A DNA stretch of 64,000 nt. Origin: Bacillota bacterium (GTDB taxonomy: Bacteria; Bacillota; Dehalobacteriia; UBA4068; UBA4997). The stretch is from assembly GCA_017397935.1 (NCBI GenBank), contig JAFQHN010000001.1, positions 19,134 to 83,133 of the forward strand. The letters are read 5' to 3'. The translations under genes were made by a program, and so were the position numbers. Below the pieces are notes generated by a model. That model saw only the letters and a list, made by a program, of their open reading frames with translations, ran no database searches and was not told the DNA's origin. Below are positions 7,992 to 49,798 of this stretch, one piece after another. The first letter of the stretch is position 1, and every line of letters begins with the position of its first letter.

Positions 7992-8438
7992 TCAGCACAC
8001 ACCGGCTTGCAGCAGCTTCAATTTGCGGCTCAAATGCCGCTGGCTATACCCCACCTCGTCGGCCACATTCTCCCAGGTCAACCCTTCAATATAATACAGG
8101 CGCAAAATACGGCGGTTCTCCGGCGAGTAGCTGTCAATGTCCTGCTCGATCTGTATGCGCAGTTCAATCAGCCGGTTCAATTTCTCGGCCAGCAGGCAGG
8201 ATAACTCCCACAGCTTGGCGGCCGTCTCACCGGTCGCGTCGTTTGCCCCACCACCCTTGGCATACACGCCCACCGGCCAGCTTGATGGCACCCGCCCCTG
8301 CGCCAGGGCCTCTTTTTCCGCCTCCAAATCCGCAATCTCACGGCATAACTGGCGGTACTGCTTCATCTGCTCAAAATCCACCTGCCTGCTCTCTCTCAAA
8401 TTCTCTGTCATATTCTCTTTTGCATTTTTGTTTGCCAT
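7992..8438 (-). CDS. Small sigma-70 region-4 type HTH protein (phage-style positive-regulator architecture)
   Basis: 148 aa. Coiled-coil N-terminal half, then C-terminal RRILRLYYIEGLTWENVADEVGYSQRHLSRKLKLL, which resembles a sigma70_r4 HTH. Confidence 0.5.
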   Translation of the reverse strand: MANKNAKENMTENLRESRQVDFEQMKQYRQLCREIADLEAEKEALAQGRVPSSWPVGVYAKGGGANDATGETAAKLWELSCLLAEKLNRLIELRIQIEQDIDSYSPENRRILRLYYIEGLTWENVADEVGYSQRHLSRKLKLLQAGVC

Positions 8439-41711: not shown

Positions 41712-42113
41712 ATGAGAAAAGCAAGCAATAAAATCAGTAAGCTGAGGAAATTTTTCGGCGTAATGCTGGCCTGCCTGCTGATAGCCGCCTCTCTGGCCGG
41801 CTGTTCAGACAACAACGGCAGCGGCACAGGCACAGGTACTGGCACAGGCACCAACACCGGCATGGGCATGGGCAACACCGCCCCCGGCACCAGCAACAAC
41901 GGCACGGGTTATAACCCCAACGCCACCAACACCGGCAACTCCATGCTGTCTGATAGCTATGACACCAACAACGGCCTGGGCGATAACAACGGCACCGGCG
42001 CAGCCGGCTACGGCTCCGGTTACAGCATCGGCACCGGCGTCAGAAACAGCGATTACCAAAACAGCGGCGTTATCGGCGCCGGCCGCACCGGCAATATCTC
42101 CGCCGATATGTAA
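41712..42113 (+). CDS. Low-complexity Gly/Thr/Asn-rich lipoprotein
   Basis: 133 aa. Signal peptide with lipobox LAGC, then GSGTGTGTGTGTNTGMGMGNT... RBS ACGGAGGA lies upstream. Confidence 0.6.
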   Translation: MRKASNKISKLRKFFGVMLACLLIAASLAGCSDNNGSGTGTGTGTGTNTGMGMGNTAPGTSNNGTGYNPNATNTGNSMLSDSYDTNNGLGDNNGTGAAGYGSGYSIGTGVRNSDYQNSGVIGAGRTGNISADM

Positions 42114-43013: not shown

Positions 43014-44692
43014 TAATCACTCCCCCCAAAAACCATTTCCGAAAGTGACTTGCCGGGCGCAACCATCGGCATAACATTTTCTTCCTCGTCCACCAACACT
43101 TCCACCAGCACCGGGCCGGGGGTATTTCTGGCCTGCTCCAAGGCAGCCCTCACATCCTCCGCCTTCTCCACGGTAATGCCCGTGCAGCCCATAGCCTCGG
43201 CCAGCTTGGCAAAACTTATCTTGAACTCGTGCTTGGATGCCGACATACGGTTGTTAAAGAACATTCTCTGCCATTGACGCACCATGCCCAGGCCCCGGTT
43301 GTTCAAAATCAACATCTTCACCGGCAGATTTTCCTCGGTCAGCGTGGCCATTTCCTGGCAGTTCATCATAATACTGCCGTCGCTGGATACCAACCAAACC
43401 TCTTTATCCCCGGCCAAAACCGCCGCACCCAGCGCCGCCGGCAAACCGTAACCCATAGTACCCAGGCCGCCGCTGGTCAAAAAAGTTCTGGGGTGCTTAA
43501 AATCCAGATACTGGGCAGACCACATCTGGTGCTGGCCAACGTCGGTGGCGATAACCGCCTCGCCTCTGGTCAAATCGTTCAGCTCCTCCAACACATACTC
43601 CGGCTTGATAACCTCGGCAGATTTTTCATAGCTCATCGGATGCTCCTGCTTCCATTTGGCACAATTGGCCAGCCAATCGCTCAAATTACCGGTCTCGGCC
43701 TGCATCAACAGCGGCAAAGACCACTTCAAATCACCGGCCAGCCGATAATCAATGCGTACATTTTTATTAAACTCGGCCGGGTCAATATCCAAATGCACCA
43801 CTCTGGCGCCGGCCGCAAAGGTGTTCAGCGTGCCCGTCACACGGTCATCAAAGCGCACACCCACACCAATCAGCAAATCGGCGTGCTGTACCGCCATGTT
43901 GGCCGCATAAGTGCCGTGCATACCCAGCATACCCAAATGCAGTTCATCATCGGTAGGGTACGCAGTCAGGCCCATCAAACTGGCCACCACGGGGATTTTC
44001 GTCTTGGCCACCAGCTCTCTCAGCAAATCAGACGCGCCGGAGCTTACCACACCGCCGCCCACAAACAGCACCGGGCTGTGGCTGCGGTTGATGACGTCCA
44101 AAATAGCCTGCAAATCGGCCGTGCCGCCCTCAGTTTTCGGCTGATAACTCCAATGCAGGTGGTCCAGATTTTCGGGGTAATCCCATTCCGCCTCATCCAA
44201 AAATACGTCCTTGGGGATATCCACCACCACGGGGCCGGGGCGGCCGCTACGGGCAATATAAAAAGCTTTTTTAAGCGTCAATGCCAAATCATTAACGTCC
44301 TGCACCAAAAAATTATGCTTGGTAATGGGCGTGGTAATACCCACCACATCCGCCTCCTGGAAGCTGTCCTTACCAATGGCCGCGCGCACCACCTGGCAGG
44401 TAATGCACACCATAGGGATGGAGTCCATATTGGCGGTGGCAATACCGGTGATCAGATTGGTGGCTCCCGGGCCGGAGGTGGAAATGCAAACACCCACCTT
44501 ACCGGTAAATCGGGCATAACCGTCGGCTGCGTGTACTGCACCCTGCTCATGGCGGGTCAGCACGTGGCGCAGACCGCTGTCATACAGGGCGTCATAAAGC
44601 GGCAGCGCACCGCCGCCCGGATAGCCGAAAACAGTTTCAATACCCTCGGCTCTGATAGCTTCAACAACAATATTCGCACCCTTTAATCGCAT
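43010..44692 (-). CDS. ilvB: Acetolactate synthase large subunit, biosynthetic type
   Basis: 560 aa. ThDP enzyme with GYPGGGALPLYDAL and a GLGTMGYGLPAALGA...GDGS-type ThDP motif. Confidence 0.95.
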   Translation of the reverse strand: MRLKGANIVVEAIRAEGIETVFGYPGGGALPLYDALYDSGLRHVLTRHEQGAVHAADGYARFTGKVGVCISTSGPGATNLITGIATANMDSIPMVCITCQVVRAAIGKDSFQEADVVGITTPITKHNFLVQDVNDLALTLKKAFYIARSGRPGPVVVDIPKDVFLDEAEWDYPENLDHLHWSYQPKTEGGTADLQAILDVINRSHSPVLFVGGGVVSSGASDLLRELVAKTKIPVVASLMGLTAYPTDDELHLGMLGMHGTYAANMAVQHADLLIGVGVRFDDRVTGTLNTFAAGARVVHLDIDPAEFNKNVRIDYRLAGDLKWSLPLLMQAETGNLSDWLANCAKWKQEHPMSYEKSAEVIKPEYVLEELNDLTRGEAVIATDVGQHQMWSAQYLDFKHPRTFLTSGGLGTMGYGLPAALGAAVLAGDKEVWLVSSDGSIMMNCQEMATLTEENLPVKMLILNNRGLGMVRQWQRMFFNNRMSASKHEFKISFAKLAEAMGCTGITVEKAEDVRAALEQARNTPGPVLVEVLVDEEENVMPMVAPGKSLSEMVFGGSDY

Positions 44693-46041
44693 AATTCAGC
44701 CTCCTTAACAGCCAGCCAAATTGCACATTCCAGGCGGATTCGGCTGATTTTGCAGCCCAGTTCATAAGGCTGCATAATATCGTGGTGGAACAAATCGGCA
44801 TTGGCATGGCAGCCGCCGCTGCAAAAGAACCGCGCCCAGCAGTTCATGCAGCTTTCCTTGTTATACACATGGGCGTTGCGGAATTTATCCACCAATTCCT
44901 TACTCTTTGGCCAAACACCTTCCGCCACCGTACCCAGCTTGTACTCCTCACGCCCCACAAACTGGTGGCAAGGATAAAATTCGCCCTCAGGTGTTACCAC
45001 CATATACTCATAACCGGCGCCGCAGCCCGTCAATCTCTTGGGCAGGCACGGCCCCTGCTTCAAATTCAGCTTAAAATGGAAGAAGTCAAAAGGTCTGCCC
45101 TCCTCACGCCGCGCCTCAAAAAGCTCGGCCAGCTTCCAATATTCCTCTTTCAGCTGGGGCAGGTCCTCCTCATGCAGCTTGCGCGGGCCATAAAGCTCCA
45201 CCGCCGGCTCCATGGATAAACGCGGAAAGCCCATATCCAGCCAATGCTTGATGTCCTCGCTGAAATCCTTGTTATAGCCGGTATATGTACCGCGCACAAT
45301 GGCGTTCTGGCGGGTGTTCTGCGCCAAAAACATCTTGATGTTCTCGGTCACCTGCTCATAGCTGCCGCTGCCATCGGGGAAAACTCTCTGGCGGTCATGC
45401 ACCTCTTTGCGCCCGTCATGGCTAAGCACCACACTCACGGCATTTTCCTCGGCCCAGGCCGCAATCTCCGGCGTCAGGCCCACACAGTTGGTGGTAAAGG
45501 TAAAGCGCAGCGTCTTGCCAAATTCCTTTTCTCTCTCCCGTCCATAAGCCACCAGCCGCTGTACCACATCAATATTCAGCAGAGGCTCACCGCCAAAAAA
45601 GTCAACCTCCAAAAATTTGCGGATACCGCTGTGCGTCAGCAGATAATCCAGGGCCGCCGCACCCGTTTCAAAGCTCATCATGCTGCGTTTGCCGCCAAAG
45701 CTGCCGGTGGATGCAAAACAATAACGGCAGCGAAGATCACAGTCGTGGCAAATATTCAAACACAGCGATTTCAACACCGGCGCCGGCGGAATATACTTGC
45801 CCAAATAGGCGTCATCGGTAAACAGCACCTGCTCCTCTTTCAGCGCCATCAATTCCTCGGCAATCTCCTGCTCATCCGCAGATAACTCCTCGCCGGCCTG
45901 CAATTTGTTCAGACACTTCACGGTGTCCTCATCGATCCGCATCACCGAGCCGCTGTTAATATCCAGCAGCAGCCAACCGTCAGGCACAGCAAACCAATGA
46001 ATTTTGGCCAGTTCCGATACATCAAAATTTTCCCAAACCAT
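44683..46041 (-). CDS. SCIFF peptide radical SAM/SPASM maturase (thioether cross-link forming)
   Basis: 452 aa. CHDCDLRCRYC radical SAM cluster motif and a C-terminal SPASM Cys clusters (CMNCWARFFCSGGCHA). Located downstream of a SCIFF precursor. Confidence 0.88.
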   Translation of the reverse strand: MVWENFDVSELAKIHWFAVPDGWLLLDINSGSVMRIDEDTVKCLNKLQAGEELSADEQEIAEELMALKEEQVLFTDDAYLGKYIPPAPVLKSLCLNICHDCDLRCRYCFASTGSFGGKRSMMSFETGAAALDYLLTHSGIRKFLEVDFFGGEPLLNIDVVQRLVAYGREREKEFGKTLRFTFTTNCVGLTPEIAAWAEENAVSVVLSHDGRKEVHDRQRVFPDGSGSYEQVTENIKMFLAQNTRQNAIVRGTYTGYNKDFSEDIKHWLDMGFPRLSMEPAVELYGPRKLHEEDLPQLKEEYWKLAELFEARREEGRPFDFFHFKLNLKQGPCLPKRLTGCGAGYEYMVVTPEGEFYPCHQFVGREEYKLGTVAEGVWPKSKELVDKFRNAHVYNKESCMNCWARFFCSGGCHANADLFHHDIMQPYELGCKISRIRLECAIWLAVKEAELCD

Positions 46042-46124
46042 AAACTTACCTCAATATATCCCAAAATTTTTTATTTTTTAAGCACCTTTTTCTTAGATGC
46101 TATCCTTAAACTTTCTCGTAAATT

Positions 46125-46345
46125 TCTCTTAGATTTTCCCATAGATAAACCAAACAGGGGCACTATCAATCCACGAACTGCCGATTTCACTCAACATTCG
46201 GCAAAATCACCCCAATTTGCTCTTAGATAAACCAAACGGGGGCACTATCAACTAACCAACCGTCAATTTTACTCAACATTTGATAACCCCAACAAATTTC
46301 ATCTCAAATAAATCAAACGGGGGCATAAAGAATGCCCCCGCTGAT
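46125..46345. repeat. About 2.5 tandem ~85-95 bp units between the SCIFF precursor and maturase, each carrying a terminator half-site
   Basis: CTCTTAGAT..AAACCAAAC(A/G)GGGGCACTATCAA...TCACTCAACATT... occurs twice, then CTCAAATAAATCAAACGGGGGCAT, which forms the real hairpin. Confidence 0.75.
46305..46340 (-). terminator. Intrinsic terminator/attenuator directly after the SCIFF precursor
   Basis: Minus strand CGGGGGCAT-TCTTT-ATGCCCCCG followed by TTTGATTTATTTG, 17 nt after the stop codon. Confidence 0.7.
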
Positions 46346-46356
46346 TCTGCAAAAAT

Positions 46357-46497
46357 TTATTTTTCGCAGGCCTGATTGCCAACCGTGCAAGAGGTTTTGC
46401 AAGCAGACTGACAGGAGCTTTGGCAGCTGCCGCAGCCGCCGTTTTTAGCGGTTTCCTGTAACTTACCCTTAACCACAACCTGAATGTGCTTAGCCAT
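46357..46497 (-). CDS. SCIFF (six-cysteines-in-forty-five) ranthipeptide precursor
   Basis: 46 aa, MAKHIQVVVKGKLQETAKNGGCGSCQSSCQSACKTSCTVGNQACEK. This is the conserved SCIFF C-terminal pattern GGCG.CQ.SCQSACKTSCTVGNQ.CE. RBS GAGGAGGGGGA. The longer 93-aa track ORF is trimmed to this ATG. Confidence 0.9.
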   Translation of the reverse strand: MAKHIQVVVKGKLQETAKNGGCGSCQSSCQSACKTSCTVGNQACEK

Positions 46498-46560
46498 CAA
46501 TCTCTCCCCCTCCTCACCGCGCTTAGCGCACGGCAAATTTTTTAGGTTTACAATAGGGTA

Positions 46561-46589
46561 ATTATAGCACACTTTCCTCGCATCTTCAA
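46561..46589 (-). promoter_or_regulatory. Putative sigma-A promoter of the SCIFF operon
   Basis: Minus strand TTGAAG, 17-nt spacer, TGcTATAAT, ~60 nt upstream of the SCIFF ATG. Confidence 0.55.
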
Positions 46590-46692
46590 GCAAATTATCG
46601 GCATTTTTGCATTTATTCATATACAAGCCCGCACCCATCCGCCCCCCGCCGCATAACCTGTACTATAAACCAAAACAAAAGGGGGCTTAAAC

Positions 46693-46977
46693 ATGGCCTG
46701 CTGTAATAATAACTGTAATAACTGCTGCAATAACTGCTGTCGGTGCTGCAATAACAATGACACCGCAGCCGCCAACACCAATAACAACAACTGCTGCTGT
46801 AACAATAACAACTGCTGCTGCCGTCGCCGCCGCAATAACTGCGATTTCAGCAATCTCGGCATCTTTGGCAACACCTGGTCGCTGGGCGGTCTGGGCCGTC
46901 GCAACAATAACTGCGGCTGCAATAACTGCAATAACTGCGGCTGTGATAATTGCAATAACTGCAACAACTGCGGTTGA
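46693..46977 (+). CDS. Cys/Asn-rich small protein 1 (family not recognised)
   Basis: 94 aa with 24 Cys and 35 Asn: MACCNNNCNNCCNNCCRCC...CGCNNCNNCGCDNCNNCNNCG, with a short FSNLGIFGNTWSLGGLG core. AAGGGGG RBS 8 nt before the ATG. The antisense Q/L frame (46617..46967) has a TTG start and no RBS. Confidence 0.55.
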   Translation: MACCNNNCNNCCNNCCRCCNNNDTAAANTNNNNCCCNNNNCCCRRRRNNCDFSNLGIFGNTWSLGGLGRRNNNCGCNNCNNCGCDNCNNCNNCG

Positions 46978-47140
46978 TTTTGTACCTATCTACTCTCGTT
47001 TACCATAAAAATTTCACCTTTGATTAAAATTACCCGTTCCTCTCTAATCTTTCACCTTATTTTGTACCCATCCACTCTTGTTTACCATAATTTTCTTTTC
47101 TTCCCGTTTTATTTAATCACTATAAAAATCTCAGCTTTTG
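46978..47140. repeat. Two tandem 82-bp units of the TTTTATACC-head family (TTTTGTACC variant) plus shared tail motif
   Basis: TTTTGTACCTATCTACTCTCGTTTACCATAA... and TTTTGTACCCATCCACTCTTGTTTACCATAA.... Tail TCACTATAAAAATCTCAGC at ~47117, near-identical to ~49959. Confidence 0.8.
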
Positions 47141-47245
47141 TCATAGGATAGCAACACGGCTTGCGGCGAGTAAGCAAATTTTCCTTTCACCACCAAAAGT
47201 CGTTAACCATAAAATATATCAAAATGAAAAAGGAGGTCATCGCTT

Positions 47246-47515
47246 ATGCTTTCCAACTCTATCTTCGGCAACTGCTGCAACACCTGTGGTAATTGGGGTA
47301 ACAACTGCGGCAATTCCTGCGGCGGCAACTGGGGCAGCAACTGTGGCTGCGGCTGCGGAAACGGCGTTCTCGGCACCAACACCGGCACCAATCTCGGCAA
47401 CTCGGCATTTTGCTTCGTCGGCGAATGGGTAAACATTGTGGTTACGCTGACCATTTTGCAGAGCATTCTGGGCCTGGTTTGCAACTGGAACTGCGGCTGC
47501 AACAACTGCAACTGA
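47246..47515 (+). CDS. Cys/Asn/Gly-rich small protein 2 (family not recognised)
   Basis: 89 aa with 13 Cys: MLSNSIFGNCCNTCGNWGNNCGNSCGGNWGSNCGCGCGNG..., a hydrophobic EWVNIVVTLTILQSILGLV segment, and a C-terminal CNWNCGCNNCN tail like protein 1. Strong AAAGGAGG RBS 7 nt upstream. Confidence 0.6.
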   Translation: MLSNSIFGNCCNTCGNWGNNCGNSCGGNWGSNCGCGCGNGVLGTNTGTNLGNSAFCFVGEWVNIVVTLTILQSILGLVCNWNCGCNNCN

Positions 47516-47553
47516 TTTATCCCCAAAAAATTTACGCCACAAATCCAGCTTGG

Positions 47554-47581
47554 GGTGGCCGGTTTGCGCCGGCCGCCTTTT
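47554..47581 (+). terminator. Putative terminator after Cys-rich gene 2
   Basis: GGTGGCCGG-TTTGCG-CCGGCCGCC (one mismatch) followed by TTTT. Confidence 0.55.
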
Positions 47582-47632
47582 GCTGTAAATCCGCCCGTTT
47601 GTCCCAATATCCCAAATAAAGGAGGAATTTTT

Positions 47633-48565
47633 ATGACCAAGCAAGAGCTTATCTCCCACCTGCTAAGTTTAAGCCGCAGCCTGAAAAATCTGGCGGATAT
47701 GCTGCAAAACCTGCCCGATGCCGACATAACCGACGCCTGGCAGCCACCCACCGAAATCTCCGCCGAAATAATTATTGATGAGATCAAAGAGCCCGAAATC
47801 AACATCACAAAAGATGAGGAAAATCTTACAGCCGATACCCAGGCCGACCAAAAACATGAGCAGCCTAATGAGCAGCCTAATGAGCAGCCTAATGATAAGC
47901 CGCAAGCCTCATCGCAGCCTTCCCCTCAGCCGCCCTTTAATCCGCTGGCTCAGCTTTTCGGCGGCTTAAAGCTCCCAAATATGCCCAATATAAACACACC
48001 CGCCCCCAATCCGCTTAATCTGCTGAATATGCTGGGCGGCAATCCCCTCGGCAATCTCGGCGGCCTGATGAACCCGGCAGGCCTGGCCGGCCTTGGCAGC
48101 AAATCCGGCTTAAATCTGCCCACCACGCTGACCGAGCTGCACGATAACCCCCAAATATTAAACATGGTCAATCAGGTGGCCGCCAATCCGCAATCCCTTT
48201 CGATGTTATCCCAGCTTACCGGCCAAAATCCCCAACAGCTGCAAACCATGCTGCAAGCCTTAAACCCCGCACCGACAGCCGCCACAGAAACCGTAAATAA
48301 TGCAGTAGCCGAAACCGCCGCTCCATCTTCCTTAAATGACATTTCCGGTCTTATATCCGGTTTGGGCAATCTGCTCGGCGGCAATCTTAATCAGCAGCCG
48401 GCCGTAAATCCATCCAACCCCGTAAATAATCTGCCCACCAATGCTGCTGTTATTTCCAATAATACCGCCATGCAGGCCATGCCCGTCACCCCTGCCACCG
48501 CCCATCTGGATAATCTGCTCGCTCAATGGCATTGGCAGCCTTATGCCCGCGTCTGGAAGATGTAA
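47633..48565 (+). CDS. Pro/Gln/Asn/Leu-rich low-complexity protein (unknown function)
   Basis: ATG 47633 behind AAAGGAGGA. 310 aa. Structured-looking N-terminus MTKQELISHLLSLSRSLKNLADMLQNL, then QPNEQPNEQPNDKPQ and NPLNLLNMLGGNPLGNLGGLMNPAGLAGLG type repeats. Confidence 0.55.
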   Translation: MTKQELISHLLSLSRSLKNLADMLQNLPDADITDAWQPPTEISAEIIIDEIKEPEINITKDEENLTADTQADQKHEQPNEQPNEQPNDKPQASSQPSPQPPFNPLAQLFGGLKLPNMPNINTPAPNPLNLLNMLGGNPLGNLGGLMNPAGLAGLGSKSGLNLPTTLTELHDNPQILNMVNQVAANPQSLSMLSQLTGQNPQQLQTMLQALNPAPTAATETVNNAVAETAAPSSLNDISGLISGLGNLLGGNLNQQPAVNPSNPVNNLPTNAAVISNNTAMQAMPVTPATAHLDNLLAQWHWQPYARVWKM

Positions 48566-48594
48566 ATAAAGATGTAAATAAAGATGTAAATAAA
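48559..48594. repeat. Triplicated 12-mer containing the stop codon of the preceding ORF
   Basis: GATGTAAATAAA three times, followed by (AAAATA)n. Confidence 0.85.
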
Positions 48595-48614
48595 AATAAA
48601 AATAAAAATATAAA

Positions 48615-48652
48615 TAGAATAAAAAAGCAGGCCTGCCCTCGCAAACCTGCTT
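48615..48652 (-). terminator. Intrinsic terminator of recF
   Basis: Minus strand AAGCAGG-loop-CCTGCTT followed by TTTTTTATTC. Confidence 0.6.
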
Positions 48653-48667
48653 AATATCCACTTTTAA

Positions 48668-49798
48668 TTAAACACGCCGCACCTTCCCCGCACTTACCGA
48701 GAAACTGTAATAATCGTTAGGCTGCAAAACCGGCAAATCGTCGCCCACATCGGTGGATGTAATAAAAATCTGCGCCTTATTCAACATCAACCGCAGCAGT
48801 GCTCTGCGCCTGTTGGCATCCAATTCCGAGAACACATCGTCCAGCAGCAGCAGCGGATAATAACCGGCCACCTGCTGCACCAGCTCGATCTCCGATAATT
48901 TCAGCGCCAGCGCCGCCGTTCTCTGCTGCCCCTGAGAGCCGTAATGCCGCCCGTCCACTCCGTTAATAAATATGCGGAAGTCATCACGGTGCGGTCCCAC
49001 CAGCGTCAGCCGCCGCCTTTTTTCCTCCTCACGCCCCGCCGCATAAGCCGTCAGCAGCGCCTCGGCATAGTCCTGCTCGCCCGCATCCTCCGGTAATTCC
49101 GCAAACGGAGAGCTGTATTCCAGCCGCAGCTCCTCCTGTCCGCCCGTCAGCCTGCCATGAATTTCCCGGCTAATCTCATTCAGGTGCGCCAACATCTGCC
49201 GCCGCATTTTAATAATCACCGCGCCGTTTCGGGCCAGCTGCTCATCCCACACCGCCAACTCGGCATCTGCCGCCTCTGCCCCCGCCTTAAAATCCAGCTG
49301 CTTTAAGAAATTATTGCGCTGCATCAGGGCCTTCTTATAATTGCTCAAATACAGGTGATATCCACGGTACAGCTGGATCATCTCGCGGTCCAAAAAATGC
49401 CGCCGCACCTCTGGCCCCTTCTTCACCAGCTCCAAATCCTCCGGCTGAAAAACCACCGTATGCAAAAACCCGGCAATCTCGCTGATTTTCTTGCAAGGCA
49501 CCTCGTCCTTCTTCCAAAACCGCTGCCGCCGCTGATACCCGACAGACAGCGTGTGACTGCCGCCCTTATCGCACAGCTCCGCCTTCAAAAAGAAGAAATC
49601 CTCATCCCACCGCTTAATTTTCTCCTCATTTTGCTCACGGAAGGATGACCCCAGGCTCAGATAAGCGATGGCCTCCAACAAATTGGTCTTGCCCTGCGCA
49701 TTATCCCCGCAAATAATATTCAGCTTCGGGTGAAAATGCAAACTGCATTCGTGATAATTACGAAAATTCCGCAGCAATATGCTGTTCAAGCGCAGCAC
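48668..49798 (-). CDS. recF: DNA replication and repair protein RecF
   Basis: ORF 48668..49807. Preferred start is GTG 49798, 8 nt behind GGGAGG. LRNFRNY..., Walker A GDNAQGKTNLLEAI, and an LLLDDVFSELD Walker B-like region. Confidence 0.92.
   Translation of the reverse strand: MLRLNSILLRNFRNYHECSLHFHPKLNIICGDNAQGKTNLLEAIAYLSLGSSFREQNEEKIKRWDEDFFFLKAELCDKGGSHTLSVGYQRRQRFWKKDEVPCKKISEIAGFLHTVVFQPEDLELVKKGPEVRRHFLDREMIQLYRGYHLYLSNYKKALMQRNNFLKQLDFKAGAEAADAELAVWDEQLARNGAVIIKMRRQMLAHLNEISREIHGRLTGGQEELRLEYSSPFAELPEDAGEQDYAEALLTAYAAGREEEKRRRLTLVGPHRDDFRIFINGVDGRHYGSQGQQRTAALALKLSEIELVQQVAGYYPLLLLDDVFSELDANRRRALLRLMLNKAQIFITSTDVGDDLPVLQPNDYYSFSVSAGKVRRV

Follow-up and report, generated by a model that had tools for sequence, protein, structure and literature searches.

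A 64,000-nt stretch of contig JAFQHN010000001.1 (positions 19,134 to 83,133 of the forward strand; assembly GCA_017397935.1, from a Bacillota bacterium), which we call the window and whose numbering we use throughout, carries two consecutive small genes, open reading frames (ORFs) 1 and 2, whose products are extremely rich in Cys and Asn. We find that both are real genes under purifying selection, that ORF2 defines an orphan family, that a conserved promoter footprint precedes each of them and that the pair is independent of the adjacent genes for SCIFF, a Cys-rich peptide, and its radical S-adenosylmethionine (SAM) maturase. Promoters of apparent sigma-K type shared by the two genes, the extreme Cys content, the absence of Lys and Arg from ORF2 and arms that drift in length around an invariant motif together point to the spore surface, and we give about even chances to ORF1 and ORF2 encoding late mother-cell, disulfide-cross-linkable proteins of the spore coat or exosporium that form a new family.

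Identification of an orphan gene pair

ORF1 (46693..46977, + strand) encodes 94 residues, of which 24 are Cys and 35 Asn (26% and 37%, together 63%), and ORF2 (47246..47515, + strand) encodes 89 residues, including 13 Cys, 19 Asn and 17 Gly. Each start codon is preceded at the correct distance by a Shine-Dalgarno sequence, AAAGGGGG for ORF1 and AAAGGAGG for ORF2. The original prediction, made from the letters alone, had described two consecutive plus-strand ORFs with good Shine-Dalgarno sequences and had given the same Cys and Asn counts, and our coordinates, spacing and counts agree with it. ORF1 is written mostly in AAC, AAT and TGC codons, and Tandem Repeats Finder detects arrays with periods of 9, 12, 18 and 24 nt in both genes, made of short AAC/AAT/TGC/GGC codon repeats.

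In agreement with the earlier claim that the pair belongs to no recognisable family, neither protein matched any Pfam or NCBIfam model even at E<=1, metallothionein families among them, and an NCBIfam scan of eight homologues at the same threshold was equally empty. The ORF2 family profile found nothing in the PDB at E<=1. PHROGs and PADLOC returned no match for ORF1, ORF2 or the next gene downstream, ORF3, and we discarded a phage or defence origin of the pair on these empty scans. A homologue search with ORF2 across 5.8 billion proteins gave 47 clusters, all of them unnamed or "hypothetical" and all from gut metagenomes and metagenome-assembled genomes (MAGs) labelled "Peptococcaceae" or Bacillota. 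When 1.84 billion cluster representatives were searched exhaustively with the ORF2 profile, no protein outside the family came up, which makes it a narrow orphan family. Its core peptide string was found in no searchable paper; judged by these searches, the family is undescribed, with neither a name nor a model nor a paper holding the core string. ORF1 used alone as query produced 1069 word candidates and none at E<=0.01, because of its composition bias, and its relatives were located by synteny, not by sequence search. A comparison of ORF1 and ORF2 profiles detected no homology between them (hhalign probability 9%).

Scanning 185,579 species-representative genomes, we found 13 loci, all in uncultured "Peptococcaceae"/Bacillota MAGs, which come from the guts of rabbit, chicken (Candidatus Avidehalobacter gallistercoris), mouse, goat and human. 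Related loci are denoted below by L numbers and individual homologues of ORF2 by P numbers.

Conservation and anatomy of the two proteins

Across the family, the N-terminal 40-90 residues of ORF2 are hypervariable strings of Cys, Gly and Asn, and they are followed by an invariant segment, FVG(D/E)WVNIVVTLT(I/V)LQSILGLVCNWNC. In the window protein the Cys/Gly/Asn-rich variable arm occupies the N-terminal 45-55 residues, the invariant core FVGEWVNIVVTLTILQSILGLVCNWNC corresponds to residues 57-83 (47414..47494, + strand), and a short string of Cys and Asn makes up the C-terminal tail. When the 27 codons of the core were compared among 16 independent loci, 6 first, 0 second and 24 third codon positions were variable, the first-position changes concerning Leu or Val/Ile codons, with pairwise nucleotide identity down to 75%. 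The protein read in the sense frame of ORF2 is thus under strong purifying selection. The antisense frames of the core are variable and contain stop codons; an antisense, Gln/Leu-rich ORF (46617..46967, - strand) was also considered as a real gene and rejected, the sense frame being the conserved one. In the same loci, RecF is 54-77% and DnaA 68-84% identical to the window protein. The ORF2 helix is invariant while these proteins diverge, so that it is more constrained than either of these two housekeeping proteins.

A single helix is predicted for the core; it has Trp at both ends, and its hydrophobicity would suffice for crossing a membrane. Averaged over its most hydrophobic 19 residues, WVNIVVTLTILQSILGLVC, which lie between Trp61 and Trp81, the Kyte-Doolittle value is 1.97. 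The original prediction had attributed a short hydrophobic core to both proteins, which holds for ORF2 and fails for ORF1, where the maximum is 0.44. In every locus ORF2 lacks Lys and Arg and has only 1-2 acidic residues. AlphaFold2, run with the family alignment, gives ORF2 a disordered N-terminus and a helix at residues 46-82 (predicted local distance difference test score, pLDDT, 56-78) with a mean pLDDT of 47, a model too poor for a fold search. The helix could be a membrane-spanning tail anchor. That it is invariant, the polar Asn, Thr, Gln and Ser residues included, argues instead for close and specific contacts on every face, of the kind found in self-assembling shells.

Two ORF2 homologues depart from this architecture: in P0039 a further hydrophobic stretch, GGNSALWIIILIIILFGWGG, at the N-terminus resembles the tiny transmembrane segment of YjcZ-type proteins and has no NCBIfam match, and P0044 carries a fused YjeF_N fragment (PF03853). 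Both come from metagenome contigs and may be artefacts of gene calling or assembly.

A syntenic Cys-rich ORF lies directly upstream of ORF2 in 11 loci and is the homologue of ORF1. These proteins share a MACCNN/MANNN N-terminus and a motif, G(I/L)GI(F/W)G-x3-(P/S)LGG or, in the most distant loci, CGIWGW. The Gly and Ile columns of the motif are invariant, and the third positions of their codons vary. In the alignment of homologues, the conserved pieces of the window protein are MACCNN at the N-terminus and CDFSNLGIFGNTWSLGGLG, encoded at 46840-46896 (+ strand). Outside the shared pieces the ORF1 homologues are free to vary, and their lengths range from 54 to 206 residues. The 206-residue form (L013 1965-2585; L025 7575-8195) contains two mini-domains, CDxCGN..(R/K)(W/F)xIT, between Cys/Asn arms, and three others (L009 5372-5854, L012 5121-5402, L020 4792-5091) carry tandem CCDPC(Q/E/D) repeats reminiscent of keratin-associated proteins.

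The DNA had also been described as prone to slippage, and for ORF2 this is confirmed. Within its 90%-identity cluster the protein measures 83-92 residues, and the drift arises from in-frame indels of GNW/CG/NC units located in the low-complexity part only, so that ORF2 evolves by slippage with its reading frame kept. Cys content across loci is 11-18% for ORF2 and 15-36% for ORF1, and neither the positions nor the numbers of Cys residues are conserved between close strains.

A conserved promoter footprint upstream of both genes

Besides the ribosome-binding site, only two blocks are conserved upstream of ORF2, tGCACC and, 16 nt further on, CATAAATATAAATATCAA; the spacer between them is not conserved. 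Upstream of ORF1 the same arrangement is found, with GCACC (or GCACA/TCACC), 16 variable nt and an invariant CATAACCTGTACTATAA. In the window, the putative ORF1 promoter (46631..46668, + strand) consists of the -35 element GCACC (46631-46635), a 16-nt variable spacer and CATAACCTGTACTATAA (46652-46668), and that of ORF2 (47187..47222, + strand) of TCACC (47187-47191), a 16-nt spacer and CATAAAATATATCAA (47208-47222). The distance from AC to CATA is exactly 17 nt in 28 of 28 cases (12 ORF1 loci and 16 ORF2 loci). The stricter pattern [G/T]CACC-N16-CATA is present in 10 of the 12 ORF1 loci and in 15 of the 16 ORF2 loci; the exceptions, GCACA at ORF1 of L006 and L013 and GAACC at ORF2 of L020, keep AC-N17-CATA and were recovered with a relaxed pattern. 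In every locus the two-box footprint sits 38-65 nt before the ATG. Scanning 382 kb for [GT]nAC[CA]-N16-CATA yielded 47 matches, 28 of them these promoters, and in the 64-kb window two of the three matches are those of ORF1 and ORF2. The original prediction had pointed to CATAAAATA at 47208-47216, upstream of ORF2, as a CATA-N3-TA element; it is present there, and its CATA box turns out to have a -35 partner 16 nt upstream which is conserved at both genes.

To our knowledge, these boxes and their exact spacing fit no other Firmicute sigma consensus than the one considered next. In Bacillus subtilis, sigma-E and sigma-K promoters have a common -10 element (CATA...) and are told apart only by position 4 of their 5-mer -35 element, which is C in sigma-K and T in sigma-E promoters, the gap between the elements being 14-16 nt (Eichenberger et al. 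2004, PMC517825). By this consensus, the C at position 4 of the -35 element, the CATA box and the block spacing suggest that the ORF1 and ORF2 promoters are of sigma-K type: xxACx, CATA and a gap within 14-16 nt are all present, and in most loci the 3' half of the -10 element matches nnnTA imperfectly. The SCIFF promoter, 100 bp away, is of a different kind, with a sigma-A-type TTGAAG-17-TATAAT and an upstream TG (46589->46561, - strand). A sigma-A promoter was also considered for ORF2 (TTCACC-18-TAAAAT, scoring 9/12) and rejected, its hexamers not being the conserved blocks.

The 17-nt block CATAACCTGTACTATAA recurs in 11 loci and does not vary in any lineage, an invariance reaching far beyond what a -10 element needs. 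Read on the reverse strand it contains GTACAGGT, a 7/8 match to the B. subtilis SpoIIID consensus; the block is a candidate regulator site.

Each gene seems to be followed by its own terminator. A terminator-like hairpin with a T-rich tail at 47159..47187 (+ strand), just upstream of the -35 element of ORF2, would end the ORF1 transcript, and a similar GC hairpin and T-run precede GCACC in L001, L002 and L007. After ORF2, at 47554..47582 (+ strand), a GC-rich hairpin resembling an intrinsic terminator, GGTGGCCGG...CCGGCCGCC followed by TTTT, is conserved in all loci that carry ORF3. The spacer between ORF1 and ORF2 measures 268 nt in the window versus 83-134 nt in related loci because of a duplication specific to the window (46977..47090, + strand; copies at 46977-47008 and 47059-47090, 82 nt from start to start). 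Both copies contain GTACC-N17-CATAA, an extra sigma-K-like pair of boxes with a spacing one nt longer, and these pairs may be decoys or additional promoters. An Rfam scan of 46000-48700 gave one sub-threshold chance match.

The pair is independent of SCIFF

ORF1 is divergent from the SCIFF genes, its start lying 195 bp from that of the SCIFF precursor scfA (46357..46497, - strand; start MAKHIQ... at 46497), as the original prediction had measured it. The precursor is recognised by the SCIFF models of Pfam (PF13165, 79 bits) and NCBIfam (TIGR03973, 74 bits), which do not match ORF1 or ORF2 at E<=1. Next to it is the gene for the maturase ScfB, a radical-SAM/SPASM protein (44683..46041, - strand; TIGR03974, 517 bits versus a cutoff of 425), after which come ilvB and ilvN. 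Partly on the basis of this neighbourhood it had been proposed that the two proteins are substrates of the SCIFF maturase, and that their co-occurrence with it in related genomes should be examined.

The order ilvN-ilvB-scfB-scfA, divergent from ORF1-ORF2-ORF3, which in turn converges on recF, is retained in the closer relatives of the window, and the pair is divergent from an adjacent SCIFF in the window and about 10 related loci. The association breaks elsewhere. L008 keeps ORF1-ORF2-ORF3-recF without SCIFF or scfB; L009, L012, L020 and L022 have the ORF1-ORF2 pair alone, beside ndk, with no radical-SAM gene in their flanks; and in L003-L005 SCIFF (with scfB) is followed directly by ORF2, ORF1 being missing. 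Further rearrangements in L006/L024 and L013/L025 leave the ORF1-ORF2-ORF3 trio intact. Since five loci have no SCIFF or radical-SAM neighbour, the conserved unit is ORF1 plus ORF2, usually with ORF3. Gene order across these loci indicates that part of the lineage has inherited the adjacency to SCIFF as synteny and that it is not a functional signature. A precursor encoded with its radical-SAM enzyme is not what we find here, the pair being divergent from the scfA-scfB operon and having promoters of its own, and no YcaO or additional radical-SAM gene was present in the locus flanks that we examined.

The 315-nt spacer between scfA and scfB contains, at 46132-46325 and transcribed on the minus strand, three tandem direct repeats of ~82 nt with the core AGATAAACCAAACGGGGGCA, the last of which overlaps a terminator-like hairpin (46316-46342, - strand). 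They could be an attenuator or a processing region that sets the ratio of precursor to enzyme. Their period of 82 nt is also that of the duplication in the ORF1-ORF2 spacer.

ORF3 and other genes of the window

ORF3 (47633..48565, + strand), between ORF2 and recF, encodes a Pro/Asn/Gln-rich orphan of 310 residues that travels with ORF1-ORF2 in most loci. It has a ribosome-binding site and no promoter comparable to those of ORF1 and ORF2, and is probably transcribed by polymerase reading past the ORF2 terminator. The protein is predicted to be mostly disordered, with a conserved N-terminal helix (AlphaFold2 mean pLDDT 47, too poor for a fold search, as for ORF2). It includes a helical module, LPxTLAELHDNPQ...NPQSL...LTGQxPQ, weakly similar to XPC-binding/STI1 repeats (PF09280, E=0.011, below threshold), a (NEQP)3 repeat at 47856-47901 and an invariant C-terminus, LLAEWHWQPYARVW. 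We found only 20 relatives, all unnamed, and a profile search of the PDB gave nothing except noise (E>0.04). On the other side of ORF3 lie recF, a gene for an S4-domain protein, dnaN and dnaA, all on the minus strand.

Some further features of the window are worth recording. A predicted lipoprotein of 133 residues (41712-42113, + strand; signal sequence ending ...LAGC) is Gly/Asn/Thr-rich with a (GT)5 run, is kept in L006 and L007 and belongs to no family, and is thus a further low-complexity orphan near the locus. A 148-residue protein (7992-8438, - strand), adjoining genes for a LexA-like repressor and a VanW-domain protein, comprises, of a sigma-70 factor, only a region-4-like part (TIGR02937, 41 bits, just under the cutoff) and may be a truncated or atypical sigma factor. 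Finally, the phosphoenolpyruvate carboxykinase gene of the window is one codon longer (2394-2399, - strand) than in the near-identical contig ERZ28655125 scaffold_65, a TAA stop having become CAA, so the strain behind the window differs slightly from that of the contig.

Discussion

The explanation to which we give about even chances is that ORF1 and ORF2, with ORF3 downstream, form a lineage-specific cluster of an uncultured gut group labelled Peptococcaceae. Each of the two genes would be a separate monocistronic unit read from a sigma-K-type promoter, kCACm-N16-CATA, with expression accordingly expected to begin late in sporulation, in the mother cell. The products would have a structural role in the outer layers of the spore, be it coat, crust or exosporium; their repetitive Cys-rich, Lys/Arg-poor arms, drifting in length by codon slippage, could supply dense disulfide cross-linking. 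The Trp-flanked hydrophobic helix of ORF2 would act as the assembly module, either by self-association into a lattice or fibre or as a tail anchor in the outer forespore membrane, and ORF1, with its GIFGxxxPLGG motif, and ORF3 may be partner or scaffold proteins. We infer the identity of the sigma factor, the timing of expression, the location in the spore and the cross-linking from promoters, composition and conservation.

Several observations weigh against a function in the spore. No sporulation-specific gene was seen in ~100 kb of contig or in the flanks of related loci, by Pfam context and NCBIfam scans covering the window, ~30 kb beyond it and those flanks; the M23 peptidase and amidase matches obtained are far below the SpoIIQ and CwlD cutoffs. 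The earlier suggestion of a spore coat function, the best supported of the three in the original prediction, gains a complete two-box promoter at both genes and finds no sporulation gene in these ~100 kb of contig to accompany it. The assignment to sigma-K is indirect, as it is judged by the B. subtilis consensus, and the 3' half of the -10 element fits the textbook CATAnnnTA in the ORF2 promoter of the window only: the box reads CATAAATAT in most ORF2 loci, and the ORF1 block reads CATAACCTG. The conserved blocks are also longer than a -10 element needs, which hints at the involvement of a further DNA-binding factor. The ORF2 helix has no flanking positive charges, which is unusual for a membrane anchor, and we know of no coat protein with the architecture of ORF2. 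On the other side stands Dehalobacterium formicoaceticum, the one cultured bacterium placed in Peptococcaceae that we examined: it makes spores and possesses the full complement of sporulation genes (PMC5597755). Our MAG lineage is linked to it by the NCBI family label Peptococcaceae only; the ORF2 family was not found in the collection entry of its genome, and we found no paper linking Dehalobacteriia gut lineages to spores.

Much of the same evidence bears on a possible, though in our estimation rather unlikely, alternative: that the pair encodes small Cys-rich membrane or envelope proteins unrelated to sporulation, driven by a lineage-specific alternative sigma factor or activator whose site resembles that of sigma-K, with ORF2 tail-anchored and exposing a redox-active or thiol-buffering arm to the cytoplasm. 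The Trp-flanked hydrophobic helix of ~21 residues near the C-terminus of ORF2, the lack of sporulation genes in the ~100 kb around the locus and the reach of the conserved promoter blocks past the canonical -10 element would all be in keeping with it. However, the -35 and -10 elements and the exact 17-nt AC-to-CATA spacing match the pattern of a mother-cell sigma factor, an invariant helix is atypical of a simple membrane anchor, and this helix lacks the flanking Lys or Arg. Metal sequestration or storage of the metallothionein kind, also put forward in the original prediction, could explain the very high Cys content and the CxC and CxxC strings, but it leaves the invariant hydrophobic helix without a role. 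Cys positions and numbers that differ between close strains, the lack of a family match and neighbours that include no metal transporter or regulator make it very unlikely, and we found no specific support for it.

We consider it more improbable still that the two proteins are precursors of peptides that are ribosomally synthesized and then post-translationally modified (RiPPs), with Cys/Asn-rich regions thioether-cross-linked by ScfB or, in trans, by a different radical-SAM enzyme. This idea draws on the divergent position next to SCIFF, in the window and most related loci, on Cys-rich sequences with many Asn and Asp, on the TIGR03974 match by which ScfB is a genuine ranthipeptide maturase, and on the link of SCIFF to sporulation-gene expression in C. 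beijerinckii (review PMC8102284). Yet our analysis does not support it: the pair occurs in five loci with no radical-SAM gene nearby, SCIFF and scfB occur in L003-L005 without ORF1, and the promoters are unlike that of SCIFF. No co-directional maturase, protease or exporter accompanies the pair, and ScfB already has a cognate substrate. No Cys-rich precursor model of NCBIfam was matched at E<=1; the CcpA/CLI_3235, CXXX-repeat, CefA and heterocycloanthracin models in particular hit none of the three window proteins or the eight homologues. Conservation falls on a hydrophobic helix near the C-terminus, whereas Cys and Asn positions are hypervariable and no leader peptide is conserved. Least probable of all, and hardly to be expected, is a thiazole/oxazole-modified microcin of the heterocycloanthracin kind or another bacteriocin precursor. 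The CGCGCG and CNSCGC repeats do resemble heterocycloanthracin-type Cys-repeat cores, but in no locus do the 10 kb on either side contain a YcaO cyclodehydratase, dehydrogenase, ABC exporter or immunity gene, NCBIfam gives no match, and the repeat region is N-terminal instead of C-terminal to a leader.

If ORF1 and ORF2 do encode spore-surface proteins, they would join a known kind. Cys-rich self-assembling proteins build clostridial exosporia, as described for CsxA (PMC7333573) and for CdeC and CdeM (PMC6101409, PMC7677010). Like CsxA of C. sporogenes/botulinum, CdeC/CdeM of C. difficile and CotY/ExsY of Bacillus, our proteins are Cys-rich, lineage-restricted and dissimilar in sequence from one group to another; those proteins are late products of the mother cell that assemble by themselves, with disulfides to stabilise them, and the sigma-K-type promoters of the pair would fit this class. 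In contrast, ORF1 and ORF2 have no sequence similarity to them (Pfam and NCBIfam contain no CotY/CotZ/ExsY, CdeC, CdeM or CsxA match for either protein, nor does the PDB for the ORF2 profile), they are much smaller (54-206 residues) and far more repetitive in Cys, Asn and Gly, and ORF2 has an invariant hydrophobic helix which is absent from those proteins. The likeness is thus, by analogy, one of kind and not of family membership.

Other likenesses are looser. The YjcZ family (TIGR01732) comprises tiny, Firmicutes-restricted, sporulation-associated proteins in which a Gly/Cys/Tyr-rich stretch stands beside one hydrophobic helix. ORF2, P0039 and P0043 are not matched by its model at E<=1, and the sequence of the ORF2 helix and its near-C-terminal position differ. 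With SCIFF and other ranthipeptide precursors the pair shares small size, Cys richness and, in most loci, the place beside SCIFF, but it is not co-transcribed with the maturase, and its Cys pattern is unconserved whereas that of SCIFF is strictly conserved. The Cys-rich low-complexity repeats, such as CCDPC in the ORF1 homologues of L009, L012 and L020, resemble those of the high-sulfur, high-Gly keratin-associated proteins of hair, which form a disulfide cross-linking matrix and evolve fast in repeat length; these are eukaryotic and of unrelated origin, and the likeness is an analogy only.

A more speculative, quite unlikely version of the spore-surface proposal is that the ORF2 helix, more conserved than DnaA, may be a new self-assembly or tail-anchor module that nucleates a disulfide-locked spore lattice, with the slippage-prone arms giving variation at the surface. 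Bolder still would be that the SCIFF system thioether-cross-links these arms during sporulation, in which case SCIFF would gain a long-sought physiological target.

For the mining of RiPPs, the locus shows that being Cys-rich and lying beside a radical-SAM operon is insufficient to call a precursor. That lineage-specific Cys-rich proteins of the spore envelope are made under sigma-K is already known; what stands out here is the invariant helix and the clean promoter footprint. Footprint and composition recovered these genes, an approach that can work elsewhere, and the design of ORF2, hypervariable Cys-rich arms with an invariant helix, could inform self-assembling, disulfide-locked protein materials. 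If our preferred reading of ORF1 and ORF2 as spore-surface proteins is true, they would be the first candidate spore-surface components for a widespread uncultured Peptococcaceae-like lineage of the rabbit, chicken, mouse, goat and human gut; homology searches miss the lineage-specific proteins that make up the spore coats of non-model anaerobes.

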